DNA from: Pyrinomonadales bacterium
GTDB lineage: Bacteria > Acidobacteriota > Blastocatellia > Pyrinomonadales > Pyrinomonadaceae
NCBI GenBank assembly: GCA_038212235.1
Contig: JBBQUS010000032.1
Coordinates: 1 to 61,966, forward strand
Length of the DNA stretch: 61,966 bases
Reading direction: 5' to 3'
The notes under the pieces were generated by a model that was not told the DNA's origin, ran no database searches, and saw nothing but the letters and a program-made list of their open reading frames with translations. Positions 6,611 to 61,774 of this stretch are shown piece by piece (within the stretch, counting starts at the first letter, position 1; the number at the start of each line of letters is the position of its first letter). The position numbers and the translations under genes were made by a program.

Positions 6611-7441
6611 TTAGGCAGTCGGGATTTTTACAAATGGCATTCCGCGCAAAATGACTTTTTGGCGACGGGTCACGCGTTTCGGGTTTTTCTGCGGGTTAAA
6701 GATGTTAAGCGGGCTCGGAATCATCGCCGATAGATAGGCGGCTTCCTGCGGAGATAAATCAGCGGCGCTCTTTTTAAAGTAAAAGCGCGACGCTGCTTCC
6801 GCGCCGTACAGCCCATCGCCCCATTCGATGACGTTGAGATAAATCTCCAAAATTCGGCGTTTCGAGAGATTGCTTTCAAGCGAGCGAGTGACAAAATATT
6901 CGCGAATTTTGCGGGTGAACGAGCGTTCTTCGCTCAAGTAAAGATTTTTCGCCAGCTGCTGCGTGATGGTTGACGCACCGCGTTTGAAATTAGAGGTTTT
7001 CGGGTATCCGAGCGAAGTTAAGATAGTGTCAATAATACTGTCTTTATCAAGATTCGGGAGCTGCCAATCGTTCGGGTCATTGTCGCCTTCTTCTTTGGCT
7101 TCTTTTTCGGCCTCTTTCTGCGCATCTTCCCATGATTTTTGGATGGCGTCCCAGTCAAAACCGTGATGTGTCAAAAAGTTAGTGTCTTCTCCGGCCAGCA
7201 CGGCGCGTTGCAAATTAGTGGAGATTTTATCAATCGGAACCCAAATTTGCTGACGTTTGGGTTCTTTGCCGTCTTTTTTAGCTTCTGACGCGCGATATTC
7301 AATCATCGAAGTCGTCGCGGGATTTTCGGTCCTAAGCTTGGCAATATTCGGAAAGGTGAGAAATTCATAGCCCAGCCAGAAGACAAACGCGCCGATAACA
7401 ATCAGAAAAATTACTTTGAACCAGTACCAAATAAATCTCAT
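6611..7441 (-). CDS. mtgA: Monofunctional biosynthetic peptidoglycan transglycosylase (GT51)
   Basis: N-terminal TM anchor. EDTNFLTHHGFDW and ITQQLAKNLYLS transglycosylase motifs. Carries an acidic insert. Confidence 0.8.
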   Translation of the reverse strand: MRFIWYWFKVIFLIVIGAFVFWLGYEFLTFPNIAKLRTENPATTSMIEYRASEAKKDGKEPKRQQIWVPIDKISTNLQRAVLAGEDTNFLTHHGFDWDAIQKSWEDAQKEAEKEAKEEGDNDPNDWQLPNLDKDSIIDTILTSLGYPKTSNFKRGASTITQQLAKNLYLSEERSFTRKIREYFVTRSLESNLSKRRILEIYLNVIEWGDGLYGAEAASRFYFKKSAADLSPQEAAYLSAMIPSPLNIFNPQKNPKRVTRRQKVILRGMPFVKIPTA

Positions 7442-7530
7442 AACAGTTATCAGTTATCAGTTATCAGTTATCAGTTGCCAGGATTGTTCCTCAGACAATT
7501 GATAACTGTTGACTGTTTACTGTTGAGTGA
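7442..7530. repeat. Heptanucleotide tandem array (CAGTTAT)x4-5 followed by inverted copies (ATAACTG, TGACTGT) between the mtgA start codon and the upstream gene stop
   Basis: ataacagttatcagttatcagttatcagttatcagttgcc ... caattgataactgttgactgtttactgttgag. Confidence 0.9.
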
Positions 7531-9016
7531 GCATTTTCGCGACAATTTTGCCTGAACTCATGACGCCCGGAAGTCCTGCGCCCGGATGCGTTCCCGCCCC
7601 GACAAAATAAAGATTCGAAATGTCTTCGGAGACATTATGCGGGCGAAAATAAGCCGATTGCATCAAGGTCGGTTCGACTCCGAAAGCGTTGCCCGCGTAG
7701 CTGTTAAGAGTATCGCGAAAATGGAGCGGATCAATATAAGTTTCCGTGACGATATGTTGTTCCAAATCAGGCATATAGTTGTCTGAGAGGAATTTGATGA
7801 TCGAGTCGCGATACGGTTTTGCCGCTGTCGTCCAGTCAACGTTGCCGCCAAGATTCGGAACGGGCGAGAGGACGTACCAGCTATCACAACCCAGCGGAGC
7901 CAAACTTTCGTCGGTCGCAGTCGGGCGATGCAGATAGAGCGAAAAATCTTCCGCCAGAATTTTCCTGTTAAAAATGTCGTCAAGCAAGCCTTTGTAGCGC
8001 TTCCCCATAATTATTTCGTGATGCGCCATGTTTTCGTAACGGCGATTAGTACCAAAATAAATGACGAACAGCGACATCGAAAAGCGCAGCTTTTTAATCC
8101 GCGCGTCGGTGTTTTTGCGACGATATTTGTGGTCAATCAGGTTTAAATAAGTAAAACCGACATCAGCATTTGAAACGACGGCATCGGCGGGCAAAAAATC
8201 GCCGTTCTTTAGGTAAACGCCGGTTGCTTTTCTGGTTTTATCATCAATGAAAATCCGGTCAACTTCGGCTTCGAGAAAAATTTCGCCGCCGATGTCCAGA
8301 AACAGTTCAGATAAACCTCTGACCAAGGCTCCGGTTCCGCCCATCGCAAACCAGACGCCGAATTCCTGTTCCAGCCGATGAATCATCGAGTAAATCGAGG
8401 TCGCTTCAAAAGGATTGCCGCCGATCAGCAGCGGATGAAAACTAAAAGCCTGCTGCAGACGCTCGTCTTTAAAATATTTGGCGGCAAATTGAACGACCGA
8501 ACGATCCGAGCGCAGTTTAATCATCTGCGGCACAACGCGGAGCATATCGGTCATTTTGGTAAACGGCTGATCAATCAATTCAAATCCGACACGGTAAATC
8601 TCGCCCAAATCGCGGGCAAATTTTTTGTAGCCGGCGACGTCGTCCGGGTTAAATTTCCGAATTTGCGCGAGCAGATTTTCCTTGTCGTCGTTGTAATTAA
8701 AGACAGCGCCATCGGGAAAACGAATGTTATAAAACGGATCAATTTTAACCAGCCGAACGTAATCCGCTGTTTTCCTGCCGGCAACCTCAAACATTTCGTC
8801 AATCAGCCACGGCGCGGTAATAATGGTCGGACCGCCGTCAAAAACAAAACCGTCCTGCTCATAAACGTACGCCCGCCCGCCTGGTTTATCGCGTTTTTCG
8901 ATGATCGTGACTTGATGTCCCTGGGCTTGCAGACGAATCGCCGCTGAAAGCCCGCCAAAACCGCTCCCGATAACAATAATTTTCACTAATTCTCCCCTGC
9001 TTGTTCGATTGTCCAA
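7517..9016 (-). CDS. Phytoene desaturase family FAD-dependent oxidoreductase (CrtI/CrtD-like)
   Basis: KIIVIGSGFGGLSAAIRL dinucleotide-binding motif. About 500 aa. CrtI-family conserved blocks. The annotated start is TTG; an in-frame GTG (V of VKIIVIGSG, about 8985) gives the canonical N-terminus. Confidence 0.8.
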   Translation of the reverse strand: MDNRTSRGELVKIIVIGSGFGGLSAAIRLQAQGHQVTIIEKRDKPGGRAYVYEQDGFVFDGGPTIITAPWLIDEMFEVAGRKTADYVRLVKIDPFYNIRFPDGAVFNYNDDKENLLAQIRKFNPDDVAGYKKFARDLGEIYRVGFELIDQPFTKMTDMLRVVPQMIKLRSDRSVVQFAAKYFKDERLQQAFSFHPLLIGGNPFEATSIYSMIHRLEQEFGVWFAMGGTGALVRGLSELFLDIGGEIFLEAEVDRIFIDDKTRKATGVYLKNGDFLPADAVVSNADVGFTYLNLIDHKYRRKNTDARIKKLRFSMSLFVIYFGTNRRYENMAHHEIIMGKRYKGLLDDIFNRKILAEDFSLYLHRPTATDESLAPLGCDSWYVLSPVPNLGGNVDWTTAAKPYRDSIIKFLSDNYMPDLEQHIVTETYIDPLHFRDTLNSYAGNAFGVEPTLMQSAYFRPHNVSEDISNLYFVGAGTHPGAGLPGVMSSGKIVAKMLTQQ

Positions 9017-9427: not shown

Positions 9428-10639
<1,212 letters not shown>

Positions 10640-11969: not shown

Positions 11970-13055
11970 TCATCTGCGGTCTATTTTCTGCAACATTTCC
12001 CGAAGCGGCCAGTCGTCGTCAAAAATTATCTCTATTTCAACCACAAAACACGGCAAACTGAATTTTAAATTCTTTAATTTTACCGCGTCTTTGGCCGTTG
12101 TCAGCAATATTTCCGCGCCGTTTAAGCGCGCTTGATTCTCAATAAAATCAAGGTCAATTTGTTGGTAAACGTGATGATCCGGAAACGCTTTGACGGATGC
12201 GAGGAGAAAATCCGATTGCCGCAGGCTCTCGAAAAATCCGTGCGGATTGCCGAGCGCGCAAAACGCCAGCCCGATTTTGGATTTCGTATTTCGTATTTCG
12301 TATTCCGCGCTCGATAAATCCGGTGATTTGGCGGGAAACCCTCTGATATTTGTCAGCCCGACGATTCGAGTTTTTGACAGCAAAATCTGACAAGTTGCAT
12401 TGAGACTTTGGACTTTGAGCTTTAAACTTTGAACTTTGTCGCTCAAATCGGCGCGGGTTAAAACTACGCAATCGGCGCGGCGCAGACTTGTTAAAGACTC
12501 GCGAAGGATTCCAGCGGGTAATAATTTTTCATTGCCAAAAGGGTTGGTTGAGTCTATGCAGACAATGTCCAAATCGCGTTTAAGCCTCAGATGCTGAAAG
12601 CCATCGTCCAGAACAAAAGCCGTAATTCCCCAAGTCCTGAACGCCCAGATTCCGGCTGCCGCGCGATTTTTGTCCGCAATGACGGCTGCCATCCCGAGTA
12701 ATTTGTTTGAGAGCTCAAACGGTTCGTCACCTGCGCTCTCGGCATCGGCTAAAATTTGCTGTCCATCGGAAACTAAAACTCTTTTTGTCGGGCTAGCGCG
12801 TTTGTAGCCGCGTGTCAGAATACAGACTTTGTGTCCGCGTTCGGCTAAAACTTCAGCCACAAATCGGACGAGCGGCGTTTTGCCCGTCCCGCCAACCGTT
12901 AAATTTCCGACGCTGATAACCAGAGCGCCCAAATCAACCGATTTGAAAAAACCGTGACGGTAGAGTCTGCGTCGCCCTCCGGCGATTCCGCCAAACAGCC
13001 AGCCAAACGGCGCCAGCAATTTTTCAGCTTGTTTGTTCAAATTATTTTTCCGCAA
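11970..13055 (-). CDS. lpxK: Tetraacyldisaccharide 4'-kinase
   Basis: VGNLTVGGTGKTP P-loop, DDGFQH, TAKDAVK motifs. Contains two in-frame heptamer repeat blocks. Confidence 0.85.
   Translation of the reverse strand: MRKNNLNKQAEKLLAPFGWLFGGIAGGRRRLYRHGFFKSVDLGALVISVGNLTVGGTGKTPLVRFVAEVLAERGHKVCILTRGYKRASPTKRVLVSDGQQILADAESAGDEPFELSNKLLGMAAVIADKNRAAAGIWAFRTWGITAFVLDDGFQHLRLKRDLDIVCIDSTNPFGNEKLLPAGILRESLTSLRRADCVVLTRADLSDKVQSLKLKVQSLNATCQILLSKTRIVGLTNIRGFPAKSPDLSSAEYEIRNTKSKIGLAFCALGNPHGFFESLRQSDFLLASVKAFPDHHVYQQIDLDFIENQARLNGAEILLTTAKDAVKLKNLKFSLPCFVVEIEIIFDDDWPLREMLQKIDRR
12278..12308. repeat. (ATTTCGT)x3-4 heptamer tandem repeat inside the lpxK CDS
   Basis: gatttcgtatttcgtatttcgtattccgc. 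On the coding strand it encodes AEYEIRNTKSK. Confidence 0.85.
12404..12437. repeat. (GACTTTG/AACTTTG) heptamer-derived repeat inside the lpxK CDS
   Basis: gactttggactttgagctttaaactttgaactttg. Encodes QSLKLKVQSL on the coding strand. Confidence 0.8.
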
Positions 13056-25012: not shown

Positions 25013-26356
25013 ATGAAAAAACACACGATTTTCGCTCTTTTGGCTCTTGTAACATGCGGATGTTTCGCCGCTTCAAGCTGCACTTCGATTCCAAACACGG
25101 TCACATCGCAACAGCCCGCCGCGATTACACAACTTACCGGCGAGCAACTTTCGCTTATTTTACCCAAACTTGCGCCGCCGCAAGCGTTGGCGCAATTGGC
25201 TGGAAATAAAGAGCAAGTCGAAGTTCTGCTAAAACAGGTTAAGCAAGTTTTGGCGCTGGCGGCGGATGCCAGAAAAAGCGGGATCGCGGATGAACCCGGC
25301 GTCAAACAGCAGCTTGATTTTACGGCTGCATCGGTTCTGGCGATTGAGTTTGAGAGAGATCAAAATAAAACCGCTCCTGATTCGCCGGCCGCGCCTTTTG
25401 CCAGCATCAAGCCGGAGGACGTTTCGGTTTTTATGGCCGAAGCGGGGAATGAGGCAAAGTTTAACTCGTTTGTCGAAGTTATCAAAAAGCAAATCGCAGA
25501 CGCGGCTCCGGCCGGCGCGCCGCCGAGAGATATCACCGATGACCAGCTCAAACAGTTTCGCGAACAGTGGGCAAAAACTTTGATTACCGAACGCAAAGCC
25601 AGAGCCGCCGGGTTCGACAAAAAGCCGGAGATCGCTTTGCAAATCGGTTTGCAGCAGGCAAGTTTGCTGGCTCAGGAATACGGCAAACGCAAAGATAAAG
25701 AGTTTGACGTGGAAGATGCGACACTTAACGATTACATCGCGCAGCATCCGGAATTTGACACGAGCAAACAGCGCGAAAAGGCCGAAGGCGTTTTGAAACG
25801 CGCCCAAGCGGGCGAAGATTTTGCCAAACTTGCCAATGAATTTACCGAAGACCCCGGCAATAAAGATCCGAAAACCGGCAAACCAAACGGCGGACTTTAC
25901 ACTGACATCAAAAAAGGACAGTTTACGCCTGACTTTGAAAACGCCGCTCTTGCGCTTGAAAAAGGAAAAATCACTGCGAACTTGGTTGAAACCCCTTTCG
26001 GTTATCACATCATCAAATTAGAAGATAAAAAAACGACCAAGGATAAAGACGGCAAGGACGAAGAAACTTTTTCGGTACGGCATATTTTGATCTCGACCGC
26101 TGGCCCGCCCGATCCGAGCAATCCTTTTAGTCAGCCGAAAAACATGCGGGAAAGCGCCCGGGACAAAATCAAAAAAGAGAAAAGCGACAAATGGATTGAA
26201 GAAGTCGAAGCGCGCAATCCAATCACATTGCCAAAACCCGAAGAAGTTAAAATCGAAGCTCCGACGCTGCCCGTTCCGCCGTCAGGATTGGGAGGCGGGC
26301 AGCCGCAGCCCGGTCCTCCGCCAGCAGCCGCTCCGCCGTCAAACGAGAAAAAATAA
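25013..26356 (+). CDS. Parvulin-type peptidyl-prolyl isomerase lipoprotein (SurA/PrsA-like) with a Pro/Gly-rich tail
   Basis: Lipoprotein signal (LVTCGC). PpiC motifs VRHILIS, FGYHIIKLEDK. Confidence 0.75.
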   Translation: MKKHTIFALLALVTCGCFAASSCTSIPNTVTSQQPAAITQLTGEQLSLILPKLAPPQALAQLAGNKEQVEVLLKQVKQVLALAADARKSGIADEPGVKQQLDFTAASVLAIEFERDQNKTAPDSPAAPFASIKPEDVSVFMAEAGNEAKFNSFVEVIKKQIADAAPAGAPPRDITDDQLKQFREQWAKTLITERKARAAGFDKKPEIALQIGLQQASLLAQEYGKRKDKEFDVEDATLNDYIAQHPEFDTSKQREKAEGVLKRAQAGEDFAKLANEFTEDPGNKDPKTGKPNGGLYTDIKKGQFTPDFENAALALEKGKITANLVETPFGYHIIKLEDKKTTKDKDGKDEETFSVRHILISTAGPPDPSNPFSQPKNMRESARDKIKKEKSDKWIEEVEARNPITLPKPEEVKIEAPTLPVPPSGLGGGQPQPGPPPAAAPPSNEKK

Positions 26357-26401
26357 CGGTATTTAACTTAAAAACAGATTTATTGAGGAGAAATAAAAGT
26401 C

Positions 26402-27820
26402 TTGAAATCATCTACCAGAGCGTTGCTCGCAATCGGCGTTTTCGCCGTTTTAATGATCGGCTTGCTCGTCTGGAGCGTTCAGTATAACCGCGCCAAAGCC
26501 GAAGAGCTGGAAAAACAGATTTTAACGAAATTGGATGGAAAGGACATTAACCTTTTAATCCAAAGTCAGGCCAAAGGCAGCCCGCAGCAACTGGCCGCGC
26601 TCAACGATAATCCAGCCGCGCGCAAAGAGATTTTGGAGCAGCTGCGCGGTTTGCTGGCGGAAGGCGCGGCCGCCCGCCGCGCCGGATTTGCGGATGATCC
26701 GGCGACCAAAGCGCAAATGGATTTGCAGGAAAAAATCCTGGTTGCCAACCTTTACGACACCGAACAAAATCAGGGTAAACCCGCCCCGCCATTCGGCAAC
26801 GTGACGCCTGAGGAAATTGATGCCTTCTGGAAAAATCCGGCGCATGAGGCCGAATTTAACAAAGCGCTTGACGTTCAAACCAACGCCGTCAAAGCTGCCG
26901 GTCAAACCGCGCCGAAACTTGAAGGAAAAAGACTTGATGACACCCGAAAAGCGTTTGCCGGTTTGATGGTCACTTACGAAAAAGCCAAAGATAACGGGAA
27001 GTTTATGAGCGAGCGCGAGTTGCAGCTGCAAATAGCTTTGCAGCAAACGATTTCGCTGGCGCGCGAATACTCAGCCAAAAAACTTGCCAAAGAAGTCGAG
27101 CCGACTAAAGAAGAAATCGCCGCCTATCTTGTTCAGCATCCGGAATACGACGCCAAAAAACAGCGCGAGAAGGCCGAAAGCATTTTGCTTCGAGCCAAGG
27201 CGGGCGAAGATTTTGCCGCGCTGGCCAATGAATTTACCGAAGACCCGGGCAATAAAGACCCGCAAACCGGACAGCTCAAAGGTGGTTTATACGAAGACAT
27301 TCCGCAGGGCTCGTTTGTCCCGGAATTCGAAGCTGCGGCGCTCGCAGTCGAAAAAGGACAGGTCGTGCCGAATATTGTCGAGTCACAATTCGGTTATCAC
27401 ATTATCAAGCTCGAAGACAAAAAAGTCGGCAAAAGCCCTGACGGCAAAGACGGAGTGATTTTCTCGGCGCGTCATATTTTGCTGCAAAGCAAATTTCCCG
27501 CTCCGAACAGCAGTCCGATGGGACGACCGCAAATGTTGAGCGGCGATGAAATTGCCCGCGCCGCCGTGGGTGAAGAAAAACAAAAGAAAGTGATTGAAGA
27601 ACTGGTCGCCCGCAACAAAATCGAATTGCCCGAAGATTTCACGGTTGACGTTCCGGAAGGGGCGGACGGCAGCGCGCCGCTGCCGCCGCAAAATATGCCG
27701 CCCGGAATGATCGCGCCTACCGCGCCAAAAGGCGGCAAGCCGATTGCGGCAGCGCCAAACGGCAAACCCGTAATAGCGGCGCCGACCGTCGCGCCAAAAG
27801 CAACAAGTAAAAAACCGTAG
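26402..27820 (+). CDS. Parvulin-type peptidyl-prolyl isomerase, membrane-anchored, tandem paralog of the upstream gene
   Basis: TTG start with an upstream GGAG. TM anchor. EFTEDPGNKDP...GGLY...FGYHIIKLEDKK block shared with the upstream gene. Confidence 0.75.
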   Translation: MKSSTRALLAIGVFAVLMIGLLVWSVQYNRAKAEELEKQILTKLDGKDINLLIQSQAKGSPQQLAALNDNPAARKEILEQLRGLLAEGAAARRAGFADDPATKAQMDLQEKILVANLYDTEQNQGKPAPPFGNVTPEEIDAFWKNPAHEAEFNKALDVQTNAVKAAGQTAPKLEGKRLDDTRKAFAGLMVTYEKAKDNGKFMSERELQLQIALQQTISLAREYSAKKLAKEVEPTKEEIAAYLVQHPEYDAKKQREKAESILLRAKAGEDFAALANEFTEDPGNKDPQTGQLKGGLYEDIPQGSFVPEFEAAALAVEKGQVVPNIVESQFGYHIIKLEDKKVGKSPDGKDGVIFSARHILLQSKFPAPNSSPMGRPQMLSGDEIARAAVGEEKQKKVIEELVARNKIELPEDFTVDVPEGADGSAPLPPQNMPPGMIAPTAPKGGKPIAAAPNGKPVIAAPTVAPKATSKKP

Positions 27821-34962: not shown

Positions 34963-35763
34963 CTATTTAAGAATATTAACTAACTCGGTCTTTTTATTTT
35001 TCTTTGCCCAGTCGAGCGCTGTGTTGCCTTTAGAATCTTTTAAATCTTTTTTGGCTCCGGCTTTTAAAAGCGCGGCGGCAATCTCCGGATATCCTTCGGA
35101 AGCCGCATAAAGCAGGGCCGTTCCGCCTGTCTTTGATTGCTGGTTGACGTTTGCCCCGCGCTTGATGAGTTCCTGGAGAGTGTTCAAATCGCCATTGACG
35201 GCAGCGGCTATGAGAGGTGATTCGCCGCCTTTCTCAATTTTGTTAACGTCGGCTCCGCGCTCCAGAAATTTTGCCGCGATGTCCGCCCGATTGGCATTAA
35301 CCGCAATGTAGAGCGGCGTTTGATCGTCTTTTCCGGAAATATTGATATCAGCTTTGGCATTGAGCAGCAAATCTACCAGATCTTCTTTAGTGGCGACAGT
35401 CGCCAGTGTGAGAGGCGTGTCACCAATCTTATTTTTGAGATTTGGATCAGCTTTGCCATTCAGCAGCGCTTTTACTATTTTCGCATCGCCCTGTTCAACT
35501 GCGGCAGTGAGAACGCTTTCACCGCCGCCGCTCTTTGTGTCGGGACTCATTCCGGCGGCCACAAAACCGTTGACTGCTCGCAGATCGCTTTGTCTGATGG
35601 CTTCGAAAAACGAGCTTTCATCAAATTTATAACCGCGCAAAGTCAAATCGTTGCGCGCGGCTTCTGGCGTCGGACGGTCGTCCGACGCGCTCTGCTGGCA
35701 GGCGGGGAATAAAATTGCGGTCAAAACAACGAGCAAAAAAAACAGCCTGAATTTGTTGTTCAT
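34963..35763 (-). CDS. Ankyrin-repeat lipoprotein
   Basis: Lipobox LFPAC. At least 5 ANK repeats (TPLxxAxxxxxxxxVxxLLxxGAD). Confidence 0.75.
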   Translation of the reverse strand: MNNKFRLFFLLVVLTAILFPACQQSASDDRPTPEAARNDLTLRGYKFDESSFFEAIRQSDLRAVNGFVAAGMSPDTKSGGGESVLTAAVEQGDAKIVKALLNGKADPNLKNKIGDTPLTLATVATKEDLVDLLLNAKADINISGKDDQTPLYIAVNANRADIAAKFLERGADVNKIEKGGESPLIAAAVNGDLNTLQELIKRGANVNQQSKTGGTALLYAASEGYPEIAAALLKAGAKKDLKDSKGNTALDWAKKNKKTELVNILK

Positions 35764-46890: not shown

Positions 46891-47547
46891 ATGGTTGCCG
46901 TCCTTTCGATTTCCTTCATTGCAATCGCCGTCCTGATCGTTTACACGATTGGGCGGCGACTTTTCTATGACGAGCCGGAAAGCCAAACTCGCTTGCAGCC
47001 GCTTAAACCCGTCACACTCTTTGCCCCCGACGCAAAATTGCTGGCGGAAATCGAACAAGCGGAGCATTACCGGAAAGCTGCGGAAGAAAGCGAAAGAGTA
47101 ATGGCTTGGGCAAGTCTGGTCAAGTTTTCGGAATTGAAGGAAATACCTCTTACTGAAAATAAAGAAATAGCAAATGATTCGCTCGAAATCTTGACCGACC
47201 GCGCCGAATTGAGCGAAGATGTGCTCGCGCTCAGTTCGTTTGTCGTCAACCATAAAACGTTAAATGTAAACCAAAAACTCATCAACAAGTTTCAAATCTG
47301 TTGGGAAAACGCGCCCGATCTGCAAAAGACAACCGAATTTTTCGAACTGGCTCTGCGCGCCGACGACGCCGATTTATTTCAAAGCGTTTTTAACGAATCC
47401 GAGCGATTGATCACAAACGGTAAATTGTCTGATTTGGATTTGAACGAACTTCGCGAATTGGCAGCCAGTCATTTTTGGCTGCTTTCATCAAGCGCCAGAA
47501 TGTCCGGCGCTGGCTTTTGGCTCAAACAAAAGCTTAATTACAGTTAA
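46891..47547 (+). CDS. Hypothetical membrane-anchored protein (218 aa)
   Basis: N-terminal TM helix. No motif recognised. Confidence 0.45.
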   Translation: MVAVLSISFIAIAVLIVYTIGRRLFYDEPESQTRLQPLKPVTLFAPDAKLLAEIEQAEHYRKAAEESERVMAWASLVKFSELKEIPLTENKEIANDSLEILTDRAELSEDVLALSSFVVNHKTLNVNQKLINKFQICWENAPDLQKTTEFFELALRADDADLFQSVFNESERLITNGKLSDLDLNELRELAASHFWLLSSSARMSGAGFWLKQKLNYS

Positions 47548-47575
47548 CAGTCAGCAGTTAGCAGTCAACAGATTT
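47538..47575. repeat. CAGTTAACAG-family heptamer repeats abutting a stop codon
   Basis: ttacagttaacagtcagcagttagcagtcaacag. The TAA stop of the upstream gene lies within the first unit. Confidence 0.85.
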
Positions 47576-49835: not shown

Positions 49836-49962
49836 GTTTAACTGATAACAGAAAACGGAAAACGGATAATTTTAGGTTCCTGCGCCTTTCATTATTCGTT
49901 TTCCGTTTTTCATTTTTAGTTTGGTTTTTGAGCATGTTACGATTAGATTTTCAGCATTATTA

Positions 49963-51240
49963 ATGAACGAAAATATTCAAGTCACGCGCCTCGCCAACGG
50001 GCTCACAATTCTAACCGAAAAAATGCCTGATTTGCGTTCGGCGACAATCGGCATCTGGCTTAAAAAAGGTTCTCGACACGAACCGGCAGAACTAAACGGA
50101 ATTTATCATTTTATCGAACATGCGGTTTTTAAAGGCACACAAAGGCGTTCTGCGTTTGACATCGCGACGGAATCAGACCGCCTCGGCGGCAACCTCGACG
50201 CCTTCACTTCGCATGAATCAACCGGATTTGTCATGAAGGTCGTGGACAAAAGTGTTCCGCAAGCCTTTGATTTACTGGCGGATATGGTAATCAATCCGCT
50301 CTTTGACAAAACCGAATTGCGGCGCGAGCAAAAAGTTATTATCGAAGAAATGAAAATGGTTGAAGATTCGCCCGAAGAATTTTTGGGGGAACTTTTTAAC
50401 CACGCTTTTTTTCCCGATCATCCTTTAGGTTTGCCGATTGAAGGCACGCGCCAAACTGTCAAAACTTTTGATCAGGAAACGACCGCCGCCTTTCACCGCG
50501 AAACATTCACGCCCGGTAATTTAATCGTCGCCGCCGCCGGAAATGTTGAACACGCTCAAATTGTCGAACTGGCAAGTAATTTTTTCGTCGCTCAAGAAAC
50601 GGAAATCCAAAATCCAAAATCCAAAATCCAAAATCCAAAGATGGCTGCTCCGATTTTGCTTAAGAAAAAGCCCGATCTGGAGCAGGCGCATCTGGTCATC
50701 GCCACGCCGTTTGTGACGGCAAAAAGCGAACAACGTTACGCCGCGCATCTTTTGACCAATATTATCGGCGGCGGAACTTCGTCGCGGTTGTGGCAATCGG
50801 TGCGGGAAAAACGCGGGCTGGCGTATTCGGTCGGGGCAAGCGCGATTTCATTTCAGGATTGCGGAGTGTTCTCGATTTATGCCGGAACTTCGCCCGTGCA
50901 GCTTGAAAAAGTCGTAGCTTTGTCAATTAGCGCAATGCGAAAAATGGTCAGGCGAGGTGTTTCGGCGGCGGAACTTGAACTGGTTAAAGAACAGGCCGCT
51001 GCTTCGATTTTGTTTGGTCTCGAAGATTCGAGCGTCCGCGCCGCGTCACTGGCCGAAAACGAGATGATTCACGGGCGGCAAATCTCGCCCGACGAAACCT
51101 TAGCCAACTTTCAAAAAGTTTCGACCGCCGACGTCCAAAATGTGGCGGCGGAGTTTTTTCAAACTGATAAAATCGCGCTCGCCGCGCTTGGCAATCTCAA
51201 CGGTTTCAAAGTCAAACGCTCGCGTTTTGAAACGGCGTAA
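49963..51240 (+). CDS. M16-family (pitrilysin/insulinase-like) zinc peptidase
   Basis: Inverted zinc motif HFIEHAVFKGT (HxxEH). Contains an in-frame (AAATCCA)x5 repeat encoding EIQNPKSKIQNPK. Confidence 0.75.
   Translation: MNENIQVTRLANGLTILTEKMPDLRSATIGIWLKKGSRHEPAELNGIYHFIEHAVFKGTQRRSAFDIATESDRLGGNLDAFTSHESTGFVMKVVDKSVPQAFDLLADMVINPLFDKTELRREQKVIIEEMKMVEDSPEEFLGELFNHAFFPDHPLGLPIEGTRQTVKTFDQETTAAFHRETFTPGNLIVAAAGNVEHAQIVELASNFFVAQETEIQNPKSKIQNPKMAAPILLKKKPDLEQAHLVIATPFVTAKSEQRYAAHLLTNIIGGGTSSRLWQSVREKRGLAYSVGASAISFQDCGVFSIYAGTSPVQLEKVVALSISAMRKMVRRGVSAAELELVKEQAAASILFGLEDSSVRAASLAENEMIHGRQISPDETLANFQKVSTADVQNVAAEFFQTDKIALAALGNLNGFKVKRSRFETA
50603..50639. repeat. (AAATCCA)x5 heptamer tandem repeat inside the M16 peptidase CDS
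   Basis: aaatccaaaatccaaaatccaaaatccaaaatccaaag. Confidence 0.9.
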
Positions 51241-51250
51241 AATCATTTTT

Positions 51251-51493
51251 ATGAAAGCGAAAATTTGCGTAATAATTGGACTGCTAACAGTCATCGCCGG
51301 TTTCATCACCGCCGTTTATTATGCCGACCAAATTATGACTGAAGTCTTGAGAGCGCAGGCGGCGGGAGTTGCCGAACCGAATCTGGACGTCAATGCCGCC
51401 GTTGCGGGCGGTTTGTTTGTCAGCATCGGTTTTGTTTTGGTCATCATCGGGTTAATCAAACTTAAAAGCGAAAAGAAAACGATTCAGCAATGA
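51251..51493 (+). CDS. Small two-TM membrane protein (80 aa)
   Basis: Two hydrophobic helices. 4-nt overlap with the downstream MBL gene. Confidence 0.45.
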   Translation: MKAKICVIIGLLTVIAGFITAVYYADQIMTEVLRAQAAGVAEPNLDVNAAVAGGLFVSIGFVLVIIGLIKLKSEKKTIQQ

Positions 51494-53449: not shown

Positions 53450-53785
53450 ATGTCCACAAAACTTTACGTCGGTAATCTTTCATTTAAAACAACCGACCAA
53501 GATCTACAAGACCTTTTCGCACAAGCCGGAACGGTTCAATCAATTAACATTATCACTGACCGCGACACCGGTTTTTCGCGCGGCTTCGGCTTTGTCGAAA
53601 TGTCCTCGCCTGAAGAAGGTGCAGCTGCTATTCAGCAATTAAACGGCAAGGAAATTGACGGTCGTGGTTTGACCGTTAACGAAGCTAAACCCCGCGAAGA
53701 ACGCAGCGGCGGTGGTGGCGGCGGCAGAAACGGCGGCGGCGGTGGCCGCGGCGGTTTTGGCGGCGGCAATCGCGGCGGCTACTAG
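53450..53785 (+). CDS. RRM-domain RNA-binding protein with a glycine-rich C-terminus
   Basis: RNP1 (RGFGFVEM) and RNP2 (LYVGNL) motifs. [23 protein letters not shown] tail. Confidence 0.85.
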
Positions 53786-56204: not shown

Positions 56205-56248
56205 GGTGAATAGTAAATAGTGAATAGTAAATAGTGAATAGTGAATAT
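56205..56248. repeat. (GTGAATA/GTAAATA)x6 heptamer tandem array immediately upstream of the gltP-like start
   Basis: ggtgaatagtaaatagtgaatagtaaatagtgaatagtgaatat. Confidence 0.9.
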
Positions 56249-56311
56249 AAAAGTAATTGTGAAGTTTACTCGTCCGCATATTCTTATATTTTCCTTTATT
56301 TTCCTTGAATG

Positions 56312-56339
56312 CACCATTTACCATTCATCATTCACCATT
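56312..56339. repeat. Inverted copy of the GTGAAT-family heptamer array
   Basis: caccatttaccattcatcattcaccatt is the reverse complement of aatggtgaatgatgaatggtaaatggtg. Confidence 0.8.
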
Positions 56340-58961: not shown

Positions 58962-59048
58962 GGGATGAAGGATGAGGGCGGAGAGATGAAAGCCAATGAA
59001 TCTAATCAAATTAGATTATCTATTTAATTTCATCCCTCATCCTTCATC
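58962..59048. repeat. Compound hairpin between emrA-like and emrB-like genes: 15-bp outer stem built from GATGAAG/GATGAGG heptamers, with a nested AATCTAAT-CAA-ATTAGATT palindrome
   Basis: gggatgaaggatgaggg...ccctcatccttcatc. Inner aatctaatcaaattagatt. Confidence 0.7.
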
Positions 59049-59065
59049 ACTCATCTTTCTTCTTT

Positions 59066-60679
59066 ATGGCTACCAGCACTGCCGCGCTTGACGCAAAATA
59101 TAGTTCTGCCGAAAAGTCGCGCCCCGATATCAATCCGATTCTGGTCGTGATGATTTTAACAATTGCGACGTTTATGGAAGTGCTTGACACTGCCATTGCA
59201 AATGTTTCTCTGCGGCAAATAGCGGGCAGTTTTTCCGCCGGTCAGGACGAATCAACTTGGGTTTTAACTTCGTATCTCGTTGCCAACGCGATTGTTTTGC
59301 CGATCAGCGGCTGGCTTGCCACATATTTTGGGCGCAAACGATTTTATATGTTTTGCGTCGGATTATTCGTCGTCAGCTCCTTTATGTGCGGAGCTTCGAC
59401 GAGTCTCGGAATGCTGATTTTCTTTCGCATTCTGCAAGGTTTGGGCGGCGGCGGTTTGGCTCCGTCCGAGCAATCTATTATTGCCGATACGGTTCCGCCG
59501 CAAAAACGCGGCATCGCCTTTGCAATTTACGGGATGGGCGTAGTTTTTGCCCCGGCCATCGGCCCGACCCTCGGCGGCTGGATTACTGATAATTACAGCT
59601 GGCACTGGATTTTCTTTATCAACGTCCCGGTCGGAGTTTTATCGCTTGCGCTCACCTGGTATTTTGTCAGAGAGCCAAAAGGAACAGCAATCGAGCGCGA
59701 AAGACTAAAAAAAGAGGGCTCCAAAATTGATTGGGTAGGTATTTTGCTGTTTGCAGTTGGCATCGGCGCGCTTGAGATTGTTTTGGATGAAGGTAATCGC
59801 GAGGATTGGTTTGAATCAAGTTTTATCATCGCTTTCGCGATTGTCGCAGTTATCTCTCTCGTTATTGGGATTACCTACGAGTTTTACCAAAAACACCCGG
59901 CAGTTGATGTGCGGCTCTTGTTAAATCGTAACTTCGCTAGTTCTTTTATACTGCTTTTTGTTCTAGGTTTCATTCTTTTCGGCTCGACTTTTTTATTGCC
60001 GTTAATGGCGCAATCTCTGCTCGGATACTCGGCGATTGACGCCGGAATGGTTATTTCGCCGGGCGGCCTGGTTGTGATGGCAATGATGCCCGCCGTCGGT
60101 TTTATGCTGCAGAAAGTTCAGGCGCGCTGGCTAATTCTGGCCGGATTAACCATTTCCGCTCTCTCTCTCTGGCATTTGACAACGCTTAGTTTGGACGCGG
60201 ATTATTATTCACTAATGTGGGCGCGAATATATCAGGCTTCCGGTCTGGCGCTGCTGTTCGTGCCGATTAACACGGCTTCCTACACGGGCGTTCCGGCCAA
60301 CAAAAGCAATAGTGTCTCGGCTCTGATGAATCTCTCACGAAATCTTGGCGGCAGTTTCGGCATTGCAATTTTGTCCACGCTTTTAGCCAGACAGACGCAG
60401 CATCACATTAACACCCTTGGCTATTACACAACCGATTACAGCCCAAACTTTGTCGCGGCTCTTAACAAACTCACGCAAATTTTGCAGGAGCAGGGTTTAA
60501 GCGCGATGGACGCCGCTACTCAGGCTCGCGGCAGAATCTGGTCTAATGTTATTAGACAAGCTACGATGCTCGCTTTTATTGATGATTTTTATATTTTAAT
60601 GCTTTTGATTGCCGGTGCGATTCCGCTCGTCTTTTTGCTCAAAGCAAACAAACCGGGAGCAGGCGGCGGGGGACATTAA
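59066..60679 (+). CDS. MFS transporter, DHA2/EmrB-QacA family (14 TM)
   Basis: 537 aa. MFS motif A region. EmrB-like conserved N-terminus (MEVLDTAIANVSL). Confidence 0.85.
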   Translation: MATSTAALDAKYSSAEKSRPDINPILVVMILTIATFMEVLDTAIANVSLRQIAGSFSAGQDESTWVLTSYLVANAIVLPISGWLATYFGRKRFYMFCVGLFVVSSFMCGASTSLGMLIFFRILQGLGGGGLAPSEQSIIADTVPPQKRGIAFAIYGMGVVFAPAIGPTLGGWITDNYSWHWIFFINVPVGVLSLALTWYFVREPKGTAIERERLKKEGSKIDWVGILLFAVGIGALEIVLDEGNREDWFESSFIIAFAIVAVISLVIGITYEFYQKHPAVDVRLLLNRNFASSFILLFVLGFILFGSTFLLPLMAQSLLGYSAIDAGMVISPGGLVVMAMMPAVGFMLQKVQARWLILAGLTISALSLWHLTTLSLDADYYSLMWARIYQASGLALLFVPINTASYTGVPANKSNSVSALMNLSRNLGGSFGIAILSTLLARQTQHHINTLGYYTTDYSPNFVAALNKLTQILQEQGLSAMDAATQARGRIWSNVIRQATMLAFIDDFYILMLLIAGAIPLVFLLKANKPGAGGGGH

Positions 60680-60797
60680 TCAGTTAACAATTAATCAGTC
60701 AACAGTTAACAGTCAACAATACAAAAGCTTTACACAAAGTCAGCGTCTGTTGATCTATGATAACTGTTGACTGTTAACTGTTAACTGTTAACTGATT
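60679..60797. repeat. Inverted pair of CAGTTAACAG / CAGTCAACAG heptamer arrays (arms of about 40 bp) spanning the space between convergent gene ends
   Basis: taatcagttaacaattaatcagtcaacagttaacagtcaacaat ... atgataactgttgactgttaactgttaactgttaactgatta. Confidence 0.9.
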
Positions 60798-61301
60798 AGG
60801 TATTGGCAGCCAACGCCAATCTTCACCGTACAATTCTTGATTTAACCGCTCAATCTTTCTCTCGGCGTTATCTTGCAGGCATTGCGGCGGCAAATCCTCC
60901 TGCCGTTCGTAACAAGCGTGTTGAATGCACGGAGCGGGTTTGGCTTCGTCGTGAACCAGGCAACCGATTTTCGGCTCAAAAAGAGGGCACGCGTAAGTTT
61001 GCTTAAAAGTGTCTCCAGTTTTATCTAACGCATATTTTTTAATTGTCTCTGCAAGACGCTCGTCAATTTTTTTCAGTTCTTCGGCGTTTAATTTACGCTG
61101 CAAAGTTTCGCGGATTGCGACGGCTTCGAGCGGCGTGATGTGAACGTTAACAAAATGAGCGTCGGTGCAGCACGCACCAAAAGTCGGACAGGCGGCGCAA
61201 TCTTGGGCTGCGGTTTCAAAATTCTCACTGATAAATTTACGGTAAGAATCTTTGACGCGGCGTAATTCCGTCAAAGATTCTTGTTCAAGAATGGTCGGCA
61301 T
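60774..61301 (-). CDS. YkgJ-family (UPF0153) zinc/iron-chelating Cys-cluster protein
   Basis: CAACPTFGACC (CxxCxxxGxCC) motif and further conserved Cys. The C-terminal codons run into the heptamer repeats. Confidence 0.6.
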   Translation of the reverse strand: MPTILEQESLTELRRVKDSYRKFISENFETAAQDCAACPTFGACCTDAHFVNVHITPLEAVAIRETLQRKLNAEELKKIDERLAETIKKYALDKTGDTFKQTYACPLFEPKIGCLVHDEAKPAPCIQHACYERQEDLPPQCLQDNAERKIERLNQELYGEDWRWLPIPNQLTVNS

Positions 61302-61312
61302 TTTTATAATTT

Positions 61313-61774
61313 TTATCTTCCTAAAAACGATAATCGTTCCAAAATTTCGTTTAACTCCTGCCGGCTTTTGCTTCCAGTTTCCGGGTTATATTCATCAAGC
61401 GCTGAATTTTCCAAAAAGTTAGATAATCTTTTGAGATGATTTATTAAAGCCGGTTTTACGTTTTCAGGCGCGGTTTGCAGAAGCAATTGCAACAGTTGCA
61501 ATTGCTTCTGCTTGGTTTCTTGGTCATGAATGCCTGTCTCGGCTTTTGACAAAAAACTTCCAACTGAAAATAACCACGATTCTTTGGGATTGCCACTTAA
61601 TTTGCCATCAATAGAGGCATGAACAGAAGCAAAAATTGAGCTTTTGTTTTCCCAATTTTCAACTGTCATTTGCAGCATTTGTTCTTCGAAATCAAAACCG
61701 GATGGCAACAGCGTAATTAAATTTTTCAAACTATATTTGTCGCGATCTATTGAAATGCTACCTTCACTTTGCAA
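61313..61774 (-). CDS. Hypothetical protein (153 aa)
   Basis: ORF only. Confidence 0.35.
   Translation of the reverse strand: MQSEGSISIDRDKYSLKNLITLLPSGFDFEEQMLQMTVENWENKSSIFASVHASIDGKLSGNPKESWLFSVGSFLSKAETGIHDQETKQKQLQLLQLLLQTAPENVKPALINHLKRLSNFLENSALDEYNPETGSKSRQELNEILERLSFLGR

Follow-up and report, generated by a model that had tools for sequence, protein, structure and literature searches.

Heptanucleotide tandem arrays at gene junctions and within two reading frames of a Pyrinomonadales contig

Contig JBBQUS010000032.1 of a Pyrinomonadales bacterium (Acidobacteriota, Blastocatellia; assembly GCA_038212235.1) carries, in the 61,966 nt analyzed here (positions 1 to 61,966, hereafter the window), dispersed tandem arrays of seven-nucleotide units. 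They lie in intergenic spacers and within the genes for LpxK and an M16 peptidase. The surrounding gene content, which includes two acyl-CoA dehydrogenases, DUF1800 and OPT proteins, MeaB, and SurA-like peptidyl-prolyl isomerases (PPIases), is consistent with Acidobacteriota.

Heptamer arrays across the window and its relatives

Arrays were located with Tandem Repeats Finder (TRF), and a separate strict scan for periods 6-15 was compared with Markov shuffles of the window. TRF reports 14 heptamer arrays at nine loci, built from at least seven unrelated unit families (Table 1). The strict scan finds five arrays of period 7 and none of period 6 or of periods 8-15, and the shuffles (n=20) gave 0.0 period-7 arrays. 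Six of the nine loci are intergenic, five of these being inverted pairs, and the three remaining arrays sit in frame within LpxK (two) and the M16 peptidase (one). A sequence-only reading of this DNA had counted at least eight heptamer loci: TRF places a period-7 array no more than 3 nt from each of them, and all are real, while one inverted pair, that at 49847-49917, had been missed. The same reading had reported contacts of arrays with stop and start codons, which we also find, and had overlooked that three arrays are intragenic; this follows from the Pfam matches, which make ORF 11970..13055(-) a full-length LpxK and ORF 49921..51240(+) a complete M16 peptidase.

Table 1. Heptamer arrays and inverted pairs in the window, with folding energies of the paired arrays (z-scores relative to dinucleotide shuffles)
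Array or pair	Position	Strand	Basis	Fold, kcal/mol (z)
(TAACTGA)x4.7 (CAGTTAT on plus strand)	7444..7476	minus	TRF, 100% match	7436-7535: minus strand -31.4 (-4.8); plus strand -37.6 (-6.2)
(CAACAGT/AAACAGT)x3.1	7505..7526	minus	TRF	same hairpin as preceding row
LpxK site B, (ACGAAAT)x3.4 (ATTTCGT on plus strand)	12281..12304	minus	TRF, 100%; about aa 251-258	
LpxK site A, AAAGTTC-like x5.4, DKVQSLKLKVQSLN	12400..12438	minus	TRF; about aa 206-219	
Single array, CAGTTAA/CAGTCAG/CAGTCAA x4.6	47540..47571	plus	TRF	
Inverted pair, AACGGAA / TTCCGTT-like	49847..49917 (loop 49871-49890)	plus	TRF, arms 49847-49866 / 49887-49917	-33.0 (-7.3)
M16 array, (AAATCCA)x5.3, perfect, encoding EIQNPKSKIQNPK	50603..50639	plus	TRF, 100%; aa 214-226	
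Inverted pair, GTGAATA/GTAAATA x7 + CACCATT x4	56206..56339	minus	TRF arrays 56206-56256, 56312-56339	minus strand -35.2 (-6.0); plus strand -26.8
Inverted pair, GGATGAA-like / TCATCC-like	58962..59059	plus	TRF arrays 58962-~58995, 59029-59059	-41.1 (-5.4)
Inverted pair, CAGTTAA/CAGTCAA + TAACTGT	60675..60794		TRF arrays 60675-60720, 60761-60794	-45.9 and -53.2 (-6.4 and -8.8)

Judging from its sequence relatives, the contig belongs to an acidobacterium (a soil acidobacterium of Pyrinomonadaceae type); that it is not cyanobacterial had been suspected from the gene content. LpxK relatives among GTDB species genomes are Pyrinomonadaceae/Pyrinomonadales metagenome-assembled genomes (MAGs; best identity 71%), the NCBI-named M16 homologues are from Pyrinomonadaceae, and the closest relatives of both proteins are Pyrinomonadaceae/Blastocatellia MAGs. 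Arrays also occur outside the window, in relatives, where their copy number differs. Among 28 LpxK loci compared, period-7 arrays are present in 11 of the 13 from Pyrinomonadales and in several from Nitrospirota/Thermodesulfovibrionia. In a survey of the window plus 109 loci (1.16 Mb, TRF score >=40), period 7 accounts for 164 arrays, period 14 for 82 and period 21 for 28, with every other period at 42 or fewer. The proposed dispersed, genome-style family thus extends to the relatives, where period-7 arrays also dominate tandem repeats. The longest perfect period-7 runs reach 39 nt.

Arrays are strongly over-dispersed among these loci: 19 loci of at least 9 kb lack them against 6.9 expected (chi-square p = 5e-13), and the sister contigs L010 and L012 are array-free, as is the L085 clade. 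Heptamer arrays are therefore a lineage trait that is absent from some sister lineages. Independent assemblies from NCBI, ENA, Logan and JGI show the same arrays at orthologous sites.

Arrays in frame within LpxK and the M16 peptidase

The M16 array coincides with the only low-confidence coil of the AlphaFold2 model of this protein (mean predicted local distance difference test score, pLDDT, 90.3; residues 214-219 below 50), and is thus predicted to occupy a disordered loop. In 60 M16 homologues (65-87% identity) the length of this loop is nearly constant, and its peptides read as the products of different 7-nt units (KIQNPKS, KIKNQKS, KVQSPKS, TTNNEQR, and others). At the DNA level, metagenomic loci of the close clade are 7-nt periodic in the loop, whereas distant relatives have a non-periodic stretch of equal length. 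The window has (AAAATCC)5, L111 has (GAAATCC)5, and L110 and L112 have (TCATCCT)4, again with equal length in all; these three relatives are described below. An exact-protein look-up for strain variants, made with either start codon of the M16 peptidase, returned no contig.

The two LpxK arrays show related behavior. Site B falls in an insertion of ~16 aa relative to outgroup LpxK, and at site A the length is unchanged relative to the same outgroup. Residues 204-257, which span both sites, do not align to the solved Aquifex LpxK (PDB 4EHW), which suggests that the arrays lie in a variable or probably disordered loop region where sequence is unconstrained. Both sites are filled in most Pyrinomonadales with units that differ between orthologues, and the LpxK of locus L001 has a related array at site A. 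Between loci L002 and L006, whose flanks are ~90% identical, the same C<->A difference recurs in most units of site B. In the LpxK genes of Nitrospirota the array is (AATTTCA)x4.7, at a position other than sites A and B. In-gene arrays have therefore kept their length across species, while the unit has changed in every copy together, which is concerted evolution.

Hairpins at gene junctions and their turnover

The five inverted pairs of the window fold with -31 to -53 kcal/mol and z-scores of -4.8 to -8.8, in line with the long hairpins that the sequence-only reading had proposed. Three of them bridge the gap between the stop of one gene and the start of the next. The minus-strand hairpin at 7444-7526 has its 5' arm over the TAA stop (7517-7519) of an amine-oxidase/CrtI-like gene (7517..9016(-)), and its 3' arm ends 2 nt short of the ATG (7439-7441) of a transglycosylase gene (6611..7441(-), Pfam Transgly). 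The pair at 56206-56339(-) separates an NAD kinase stop (56347) from an SDF symporter start (56196), both genes being on the minus strand, and that at 58962-59059(+) exactly fills the spacer between the stop (58961) of a membrane fusion protein of HlyD type and the ATG (59066) of a major facilitator superfamily transporter. The remaining two pairs lie between the convergent genes 59066..60679(+) and 60774..61301(-), where the pair at 60675-60794 fills the gap with both stops inside arrays (among them TAA 60677-60679), and between a Band-7 gene stop (49835) and the M16 gene, where the 3' arm and tail of the hairpin are U-rich. The single intergenic array begins within the TAA stop (47545-47547) of ORF 46891..47547, 50 nt ahead of the Band-7 gene start.

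The relatives contain 34 strict inverted pairs, with arms of ~31-34 nt and loops of 7-143 nt (mostly below 90). In the clearest co-directional pairs, ~-3 to +8 nt separate the stop from the first arm and 0-9 nt the second arm from the start; the boundaries of these gaps are ORF-based and crude, and several pairs fall outside both ranges. A core Shine-Dalgarno (SD) motif precedes none of 19 hairpin-preceded starts and only 2 of 72 M16 starts (loci L030-L109), an observation that also takes in the window starts at 7441, 56196 and 59066, and from its near absence before the M16 starts the lineage appears to be SD-poor. Cyanobacteria and Bacteroidetes, the other groups in which heptamer repeats are known, are likewise SD-poor.

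The junction upstream of purB is occupied in some genomes by a heptamer-repeat region of ~50-150 nt, whereas many others have an ATGA stop/start overlap there. Six filled purB sites align to one 25-bp helix in which 91.3% of cells are paired. In 10 of the 25 pairs both partners have been substituted, compared with 5.0±1.3 for shuffles (0/500). Pairing in this helix is nearly all Watson-Crick, with ~4 G-U cells.

The hairpins resemble neither canonical terminators nor phase-variation switches. Intrinsic terminators combine a short GC-rich stem with a U-tract, whereas among the window hairpins only that at 49847-49917 has a U-rich 3' side, and a scan of the window for canonical terminators and promoters gave background levels and called none of the heptamer hairpins. 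An Rfam scan of the window at gathering score returned no matches, and a tRNA scan no tRNA or tmRNA. In one of the relatives, positions 1-1310 of L101 hold eight tRNA genes clustered on one strand, with (TCCTTCA)/(AAGGATG) arrays in their spacers that are able to pair across or between individual tRNAs.

Change at the junctions was followed in L110, a 4.79-Mb ENA contig (ena:ERZ26165376:ctg355680_43x_l) syntenic with the window from 39.8 to 61.9 kb, and in the further relatives L111 and L112. Comparison for copy-number polymorphism, as the sequence-only reading had advised, gives changes of about 1-3 units in either direction between the window and L110. The 47540 array has one unit more in L110 and is missing from L112. 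Of the hairpins, that at 56206 is (GTGAATC)x4 with a perfect partner in L110, that at 58962 retains the GGATGAA family at the same site, and that at 60675 has arms of only ~2 units; the loops of three hairpins (D, E and F) are palindromic or replaced relative to L110. The hairpin at 49847-49917 is kept in L111 and L112. Its loop is reverse-complemented in L111, where 18 of 20 positions match in this orientation and none in the same orientation, while the flanks are collinear, a flip at the DNA level between the inverted arms. The exact-protein look-up for strain variants of the transglycosylase gave only the independent Logan contig L029, which terminates within the 7444..7476 array and leaves its copy number unreadable.

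These alignments suggest a turnover of intergenic hairpins as a whole at such junctions. Two sites hold inverted repeats of another kind: L110 has a perfect non-heptameric one of 24 bp (GGAGCGCGGACATCCTTGTCCGCC...) at about 9745-9830, where the window has a heptamer hairpin, and L006 has one of ~30 bp, also perfect and non-heptameric, upstream of 8887, where L002 has a heptamer hairpin.

Origin of the arrays and comparison with known repeats

An excess of heptameric simple sequence repeats (SSRs) has been reported from many bacteria (Mrazek 2007, as cited in PMC4679880 and PMC4692102). For this reason the repeats of the window, rightly called STRR-like (short tandemly repeated repetitive) by the sequence-only reading, are not the anomaly that it saw in a cyanobacterial hallmark outside Cyanobacteria; they are a known repeat class in a new phylum. 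The literature searched contained no paper tying such heptamer repeats to Acidobacteriota or Nitrospirota.

The closest parallels are the heptamers of Xanthomonas (GGGAATC) and Nostoc (GGGGAYT), which show a preference for four units and 70-75 convergent inverted pairs, are ~90% intergenic near ORF ends, and occupy the same gene pairs with varying length, no function having been found (Rehm et al. 2015, PMC4692102). The arrays studied here resemble them in the over-representation of period 7, a mode of ~4 units, frequent convergent pairs, a mostly intergenic position near ORF ends, housekeeping neighbors and occupation of the same gene pairs in relatives, where length and sequence vary. They differ in their hosts, Acidobacteriota (and Nitrospirota), in the in-frame, fixed-length arrays of LpxK and M16, and in having many units per genome, mostly AT-rich and free of G-tracts. 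The window units CAGTTAT, AAATCCA, ACGAAAT, GTGAATA, AACGGAA and similar contain none, and the GGATGAA type comes closest to being G-rich. A G-quadruplex function was accordingly rejected, and the G-quadruplex explanation of the four-unit preference cannot apply here.

A second parallel comes from Beggiatoaceae, Cyanobacteria and Bacteroidetes, in which direct repeats of TAACTGA immediately precede start codons (MacGregor 2015, PMC4679880). The array at 7444-7476 has the identical unit in 4.7 copies (2-6 in the published cases), in forward orientation, start-adjacent and without an SD motif; units that differ from it by one base (TTAACTG, TTGACTG) make up other arrays of the window, and upstream stop codons are overlapped in both systems. 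In 'Maribeggiatoa', however, related heptamers are rarely repeated and only one indirect repeat was reported, whereas here TAACTGA is one of many units and in most cases its array pairs with an inverted partner. A 2022 preprint (bioRxiv 10.1101/2022.06.06.494920) also describes Nostoc heptamers that adjoin start codons or extend over them.

The resemblance to cyanobacterial STRR elements lies in tandem heptanucleotides dispersed at many loci of the window, mostly intergenic; the differences are a non-cyanobacterial host, another repertoire of units, and arrays much shorter than the long STRR tracts on which fingerprinting relies. STRR units, as reportedly described by Mazel et al. in 1990, include a CAACAGT type, and a unit of this type is present at 7505-7526 (minus strand) and 60696-60718.

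On balance we somewhat favor the reading that these arrays are heptamers of the STRR/long-SSR class, a lineage-wide genome style produced by a self-homogenizing process at the DNA level and filtered by selection. By analogy with what is established for repeats in general, slipped-strand mispairing with a 7-nt register would create arrays and keep homogenizing their units, and out-of-register pairing followed by repair would convert adjacent units with length unchanged. In inverted pairs, template switching or recombination from arm to arm would preserve complementarity and could flip the loop. Selection would then spare arrays at unconstrained sites, such as stop-to-start gaps, spacers of convergent genes, tRNA spacers and disordered protein loops, and inside genes survival would be limited to stop-free units and frame-preserving lengths. 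Once transcribed, paired arrays may fold into stems of ~25-35 bp, and in co-directional cases the upstream stop and the downstream start would stand at the base of one helix. In a lineage this poor in SD motifs, the most likely role of such a geometry would be to maintain or impose translational coupling, or to supply a processing or 3'-end structure, and any such RNA consequences would be secondary to the DNA-level process. Interrupted microsatellites and template switching at quasipalindromes are known for concerted units, central interruptions, maintained arm complementarity and loop inversion; these general models leave the 7-nt step and the narrow 31-34-nt mode seen here unexplained.

Several observations weigh against this reading and sit uneasily with a purely passive origin. 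Under simple slippage, lengths should follow a broad or geometric distribution, whereas array lengths have a sharp peak at 31-34 nt (80 of the 164), or a mode of ~4.5 units. In arrays of 29-36 nt from all loci, a lone deviant unit falls at either of the two central places in 34 of 39 cases, a position for which end-trimming by TRF accounts only in part; the variant is mirrored in both arms in only ~10 of 39 pairs, so that mirroring is not a general property. Contigs with arrays span GC contents of 0.42-0.71 and unit families recur across that range, and AT-rich arrays (AATTAAG, AAAAGGC) stand within contigs of 66-71% GC (L050 661-768 and 20435-20461; L045 4382-4506), neither of which is predicted by local slippage. 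One identical 31-nt arm, CTTTTGCCTTTTGCCTTTTTACTTTTGCCTT, is present in L006 (44% GC), twice in L045 (66% GC), and also in L051. In the syntenic pair L051 and L077 (82% nucleotide identity) all orthologous hairpin sites are filled with different families, while near-identical arms, variant unit included, occur at non-orthologous sites, and the whole element with its loop is homologous in inverted orientation, which suggests exchange or mobility. Finally, positional conservation over family-level divergence and the covariation of arms could equally reflect selection for function.

In a possible, if less probable, alternative, the hairpins are primarily selected RNA elements, serving translational coupling or shunt-like re-initiation, RNase III processing, or protection of mRNA 3' ends, and heptamer periodicity is only the simplest way for mutation to build a long stem. 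The clearest hairpins indeed fill stop-to-start gaps with no SD motif between arm and start, the purB-upstream hairpin stands at an orthologous site in many genomes with significant compensatory covariation, arrays bracket the tRNA genes of L101, and folding is stronger on the transcribed strand for the pairs at 49847-49917 and 56206-56339. Yet the hairpin at 7436-7535 folds better on the non-transcribed strand, and in a test for RNA-level selection folding energies showed no consistent bias towards either strand and G-U pairs were very few. Partnerless single arrays, including the three intragenic ones, cannot be hairpins; sister lineages manage with the ATGA overlap; and none of the hairpins was scored as an intrinsic terminator. 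A more speculative picture, to which we give a small chance, would see the hairpins, instead of as passive products of slippage, as self-renewing intercistronic cassettes shared across phyla, made and maintained by a lineage-specific DNA transaction in 7-nt steps and exploited by SD-poor hosts. It would account for the split between sister lineages, the sequence-independent ~4.5-unit mode, the unit families common to genomes of GC 0.42-0.71, the heptamer arrays of viral contigs, site exchange and the flip-flop of loops; if true, a stop and the next start held at a helix base would be the bacterial counterpart of ribosome shunting or of obligatory coupling.

We also considered small non-autonomous mobile elements resembling miniature inverted-repeat transposable elements (MITEs) or REPINs (hairpin-forming doublets of repetitive extragenic palindromes, REPs) and inserting at gene junctions, an explanation that we consider unlikely. 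It draws on the L051/L077 arms and inverted element, on the 31-nt arm common to L006, L045 and L051, on purB sites that are either filled or empty, and on the presence of arrays in viral contigs, and like REP/REPIN elements the window pairs are extragenic, hairpin-forming inverted doublets of ~70-130 nt at gene ends, and hints of exchange between sites are a further likeness. Unlike them, they have no conserved family sequence, their arms are 7-nt periodic, and single and intragenic arrays exist. Against insertion, at least seven unrelated families rather than one or a few occur within 62 kb (units differ from locus to locus, and a single MITE family was rejected), filled and empty purB sites do not differ by a consistent target-site duplication, intragenic arrays change in situ at fixed length, and the family is retained in L110 at most window loci. 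The ~47 window ORFs scanned yielded no transposase, no IS200/IS605-like REP-associated tyrosine transposase (RAYT), and neither an integrase nor a reverse transcriptase. Binding sites for a sequence- or periodicity-specific protein (regulators of the S1, Csp or CsrA type, or a DNA-binding factor) seem more improbable still: the TAACTGA array 2 nt from its ATG is exactly the published arrangement (PMC4679880), Nostoc heptamers near start codons alter reporter expression (bioRxiv 10.1101/2022.06.06.494920), and ~4.5 units could match a multimer footprint, but one genome holds many unrelated units, units change freely at a fixed site, and no candidate binding protein was identified. Nor is TAACTGA special, because IMG/VR viral contigs, which carry (TAACTGA)4 and (AAAATCC)4, have the permuted control unit (ATCAGTA)x4 just as commonly. 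The least credible explanation is that of contingency loci or assembly artefacts. Heptamer SSRs are reported to drive phase variation in Haemophilus, and the Logan contig L029 does break within an array. In contingency loci a change of copy number shifts the reading frame or the promoter spacing, typically in surface or virulence genes; both ideas were rejected, as the LpxK and M16 arrays hold frame and length over dozens of species in housekeeping genes, and orthologous arrays recur in NCBI, ENA, Logan and JGI assemblies.

The lineage is unusually clean material for a class that has been known since 2007 as the commonest long SSR of bacteria, and for which the choice of seven and the function are at issue. 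We regard as most noteworthy the fixed-length in-frame arrays of LpxK and M16, which are natural experiments in concerted evolution; the stop-start bridging hairpins, for which the purB junction, ATGA overlap or hairpin according to the genome, offers a filled-versus-empty contrast; the loop inversion between close relatives, a visible DNA-level event; and the ~4.5-unit mode, whose occurrence without G-quadruplex potential removes the published explanation of the ~4-unit preference. A determinant found by comparing array-rich with array-free sisters would make the mechanism testable. In practice, arrays fragment short-read assemblies and may mislead gene callers at stop and start codons.

Some further repeats were noted. 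On single viral contigs (L145-L173, e.g. IMGVR_UViG_3300044824_000335) the (ATCAGTA)x4 array occurs many times on both strands, at least 11 times in one, which suggests that some viruses have dispersed heptamer arrays of their own. In the window, a 21-nt (3x7) tandem duplication, TTTGTTTTGGTCAGCATCGGT x2, lies at 51412-51450 in a small ORF between the M16 and metallo-beta-lactamase-fold genes, orthologues of which are called as an 80-aa protein. A perfect palindrome, GCAGAAGCAATTGCAACAGTTGCAATTGCTTCTGC, with a 16-bp stem and a central CAACAGT, is called by the terminator scan at 61477-61511, in or next to the unannotated ORF 61313..61774(-). There are also a GC-rich triplet/15-mer repeat, CGCGGCGGCGGTGGC x3.5, at 53702-53754 within ORF 53450..53785, and (CCG)x7.7 at 4-26, the extreme start of the contig. 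Among the proteins, the two SurA-like PPIase paralogues are neighbors (25013-27820), and ankyrin repeats, which are uncommon in free-living bacteria, make up nearly the whole of a 266-aa protein at 34963-35763(-).

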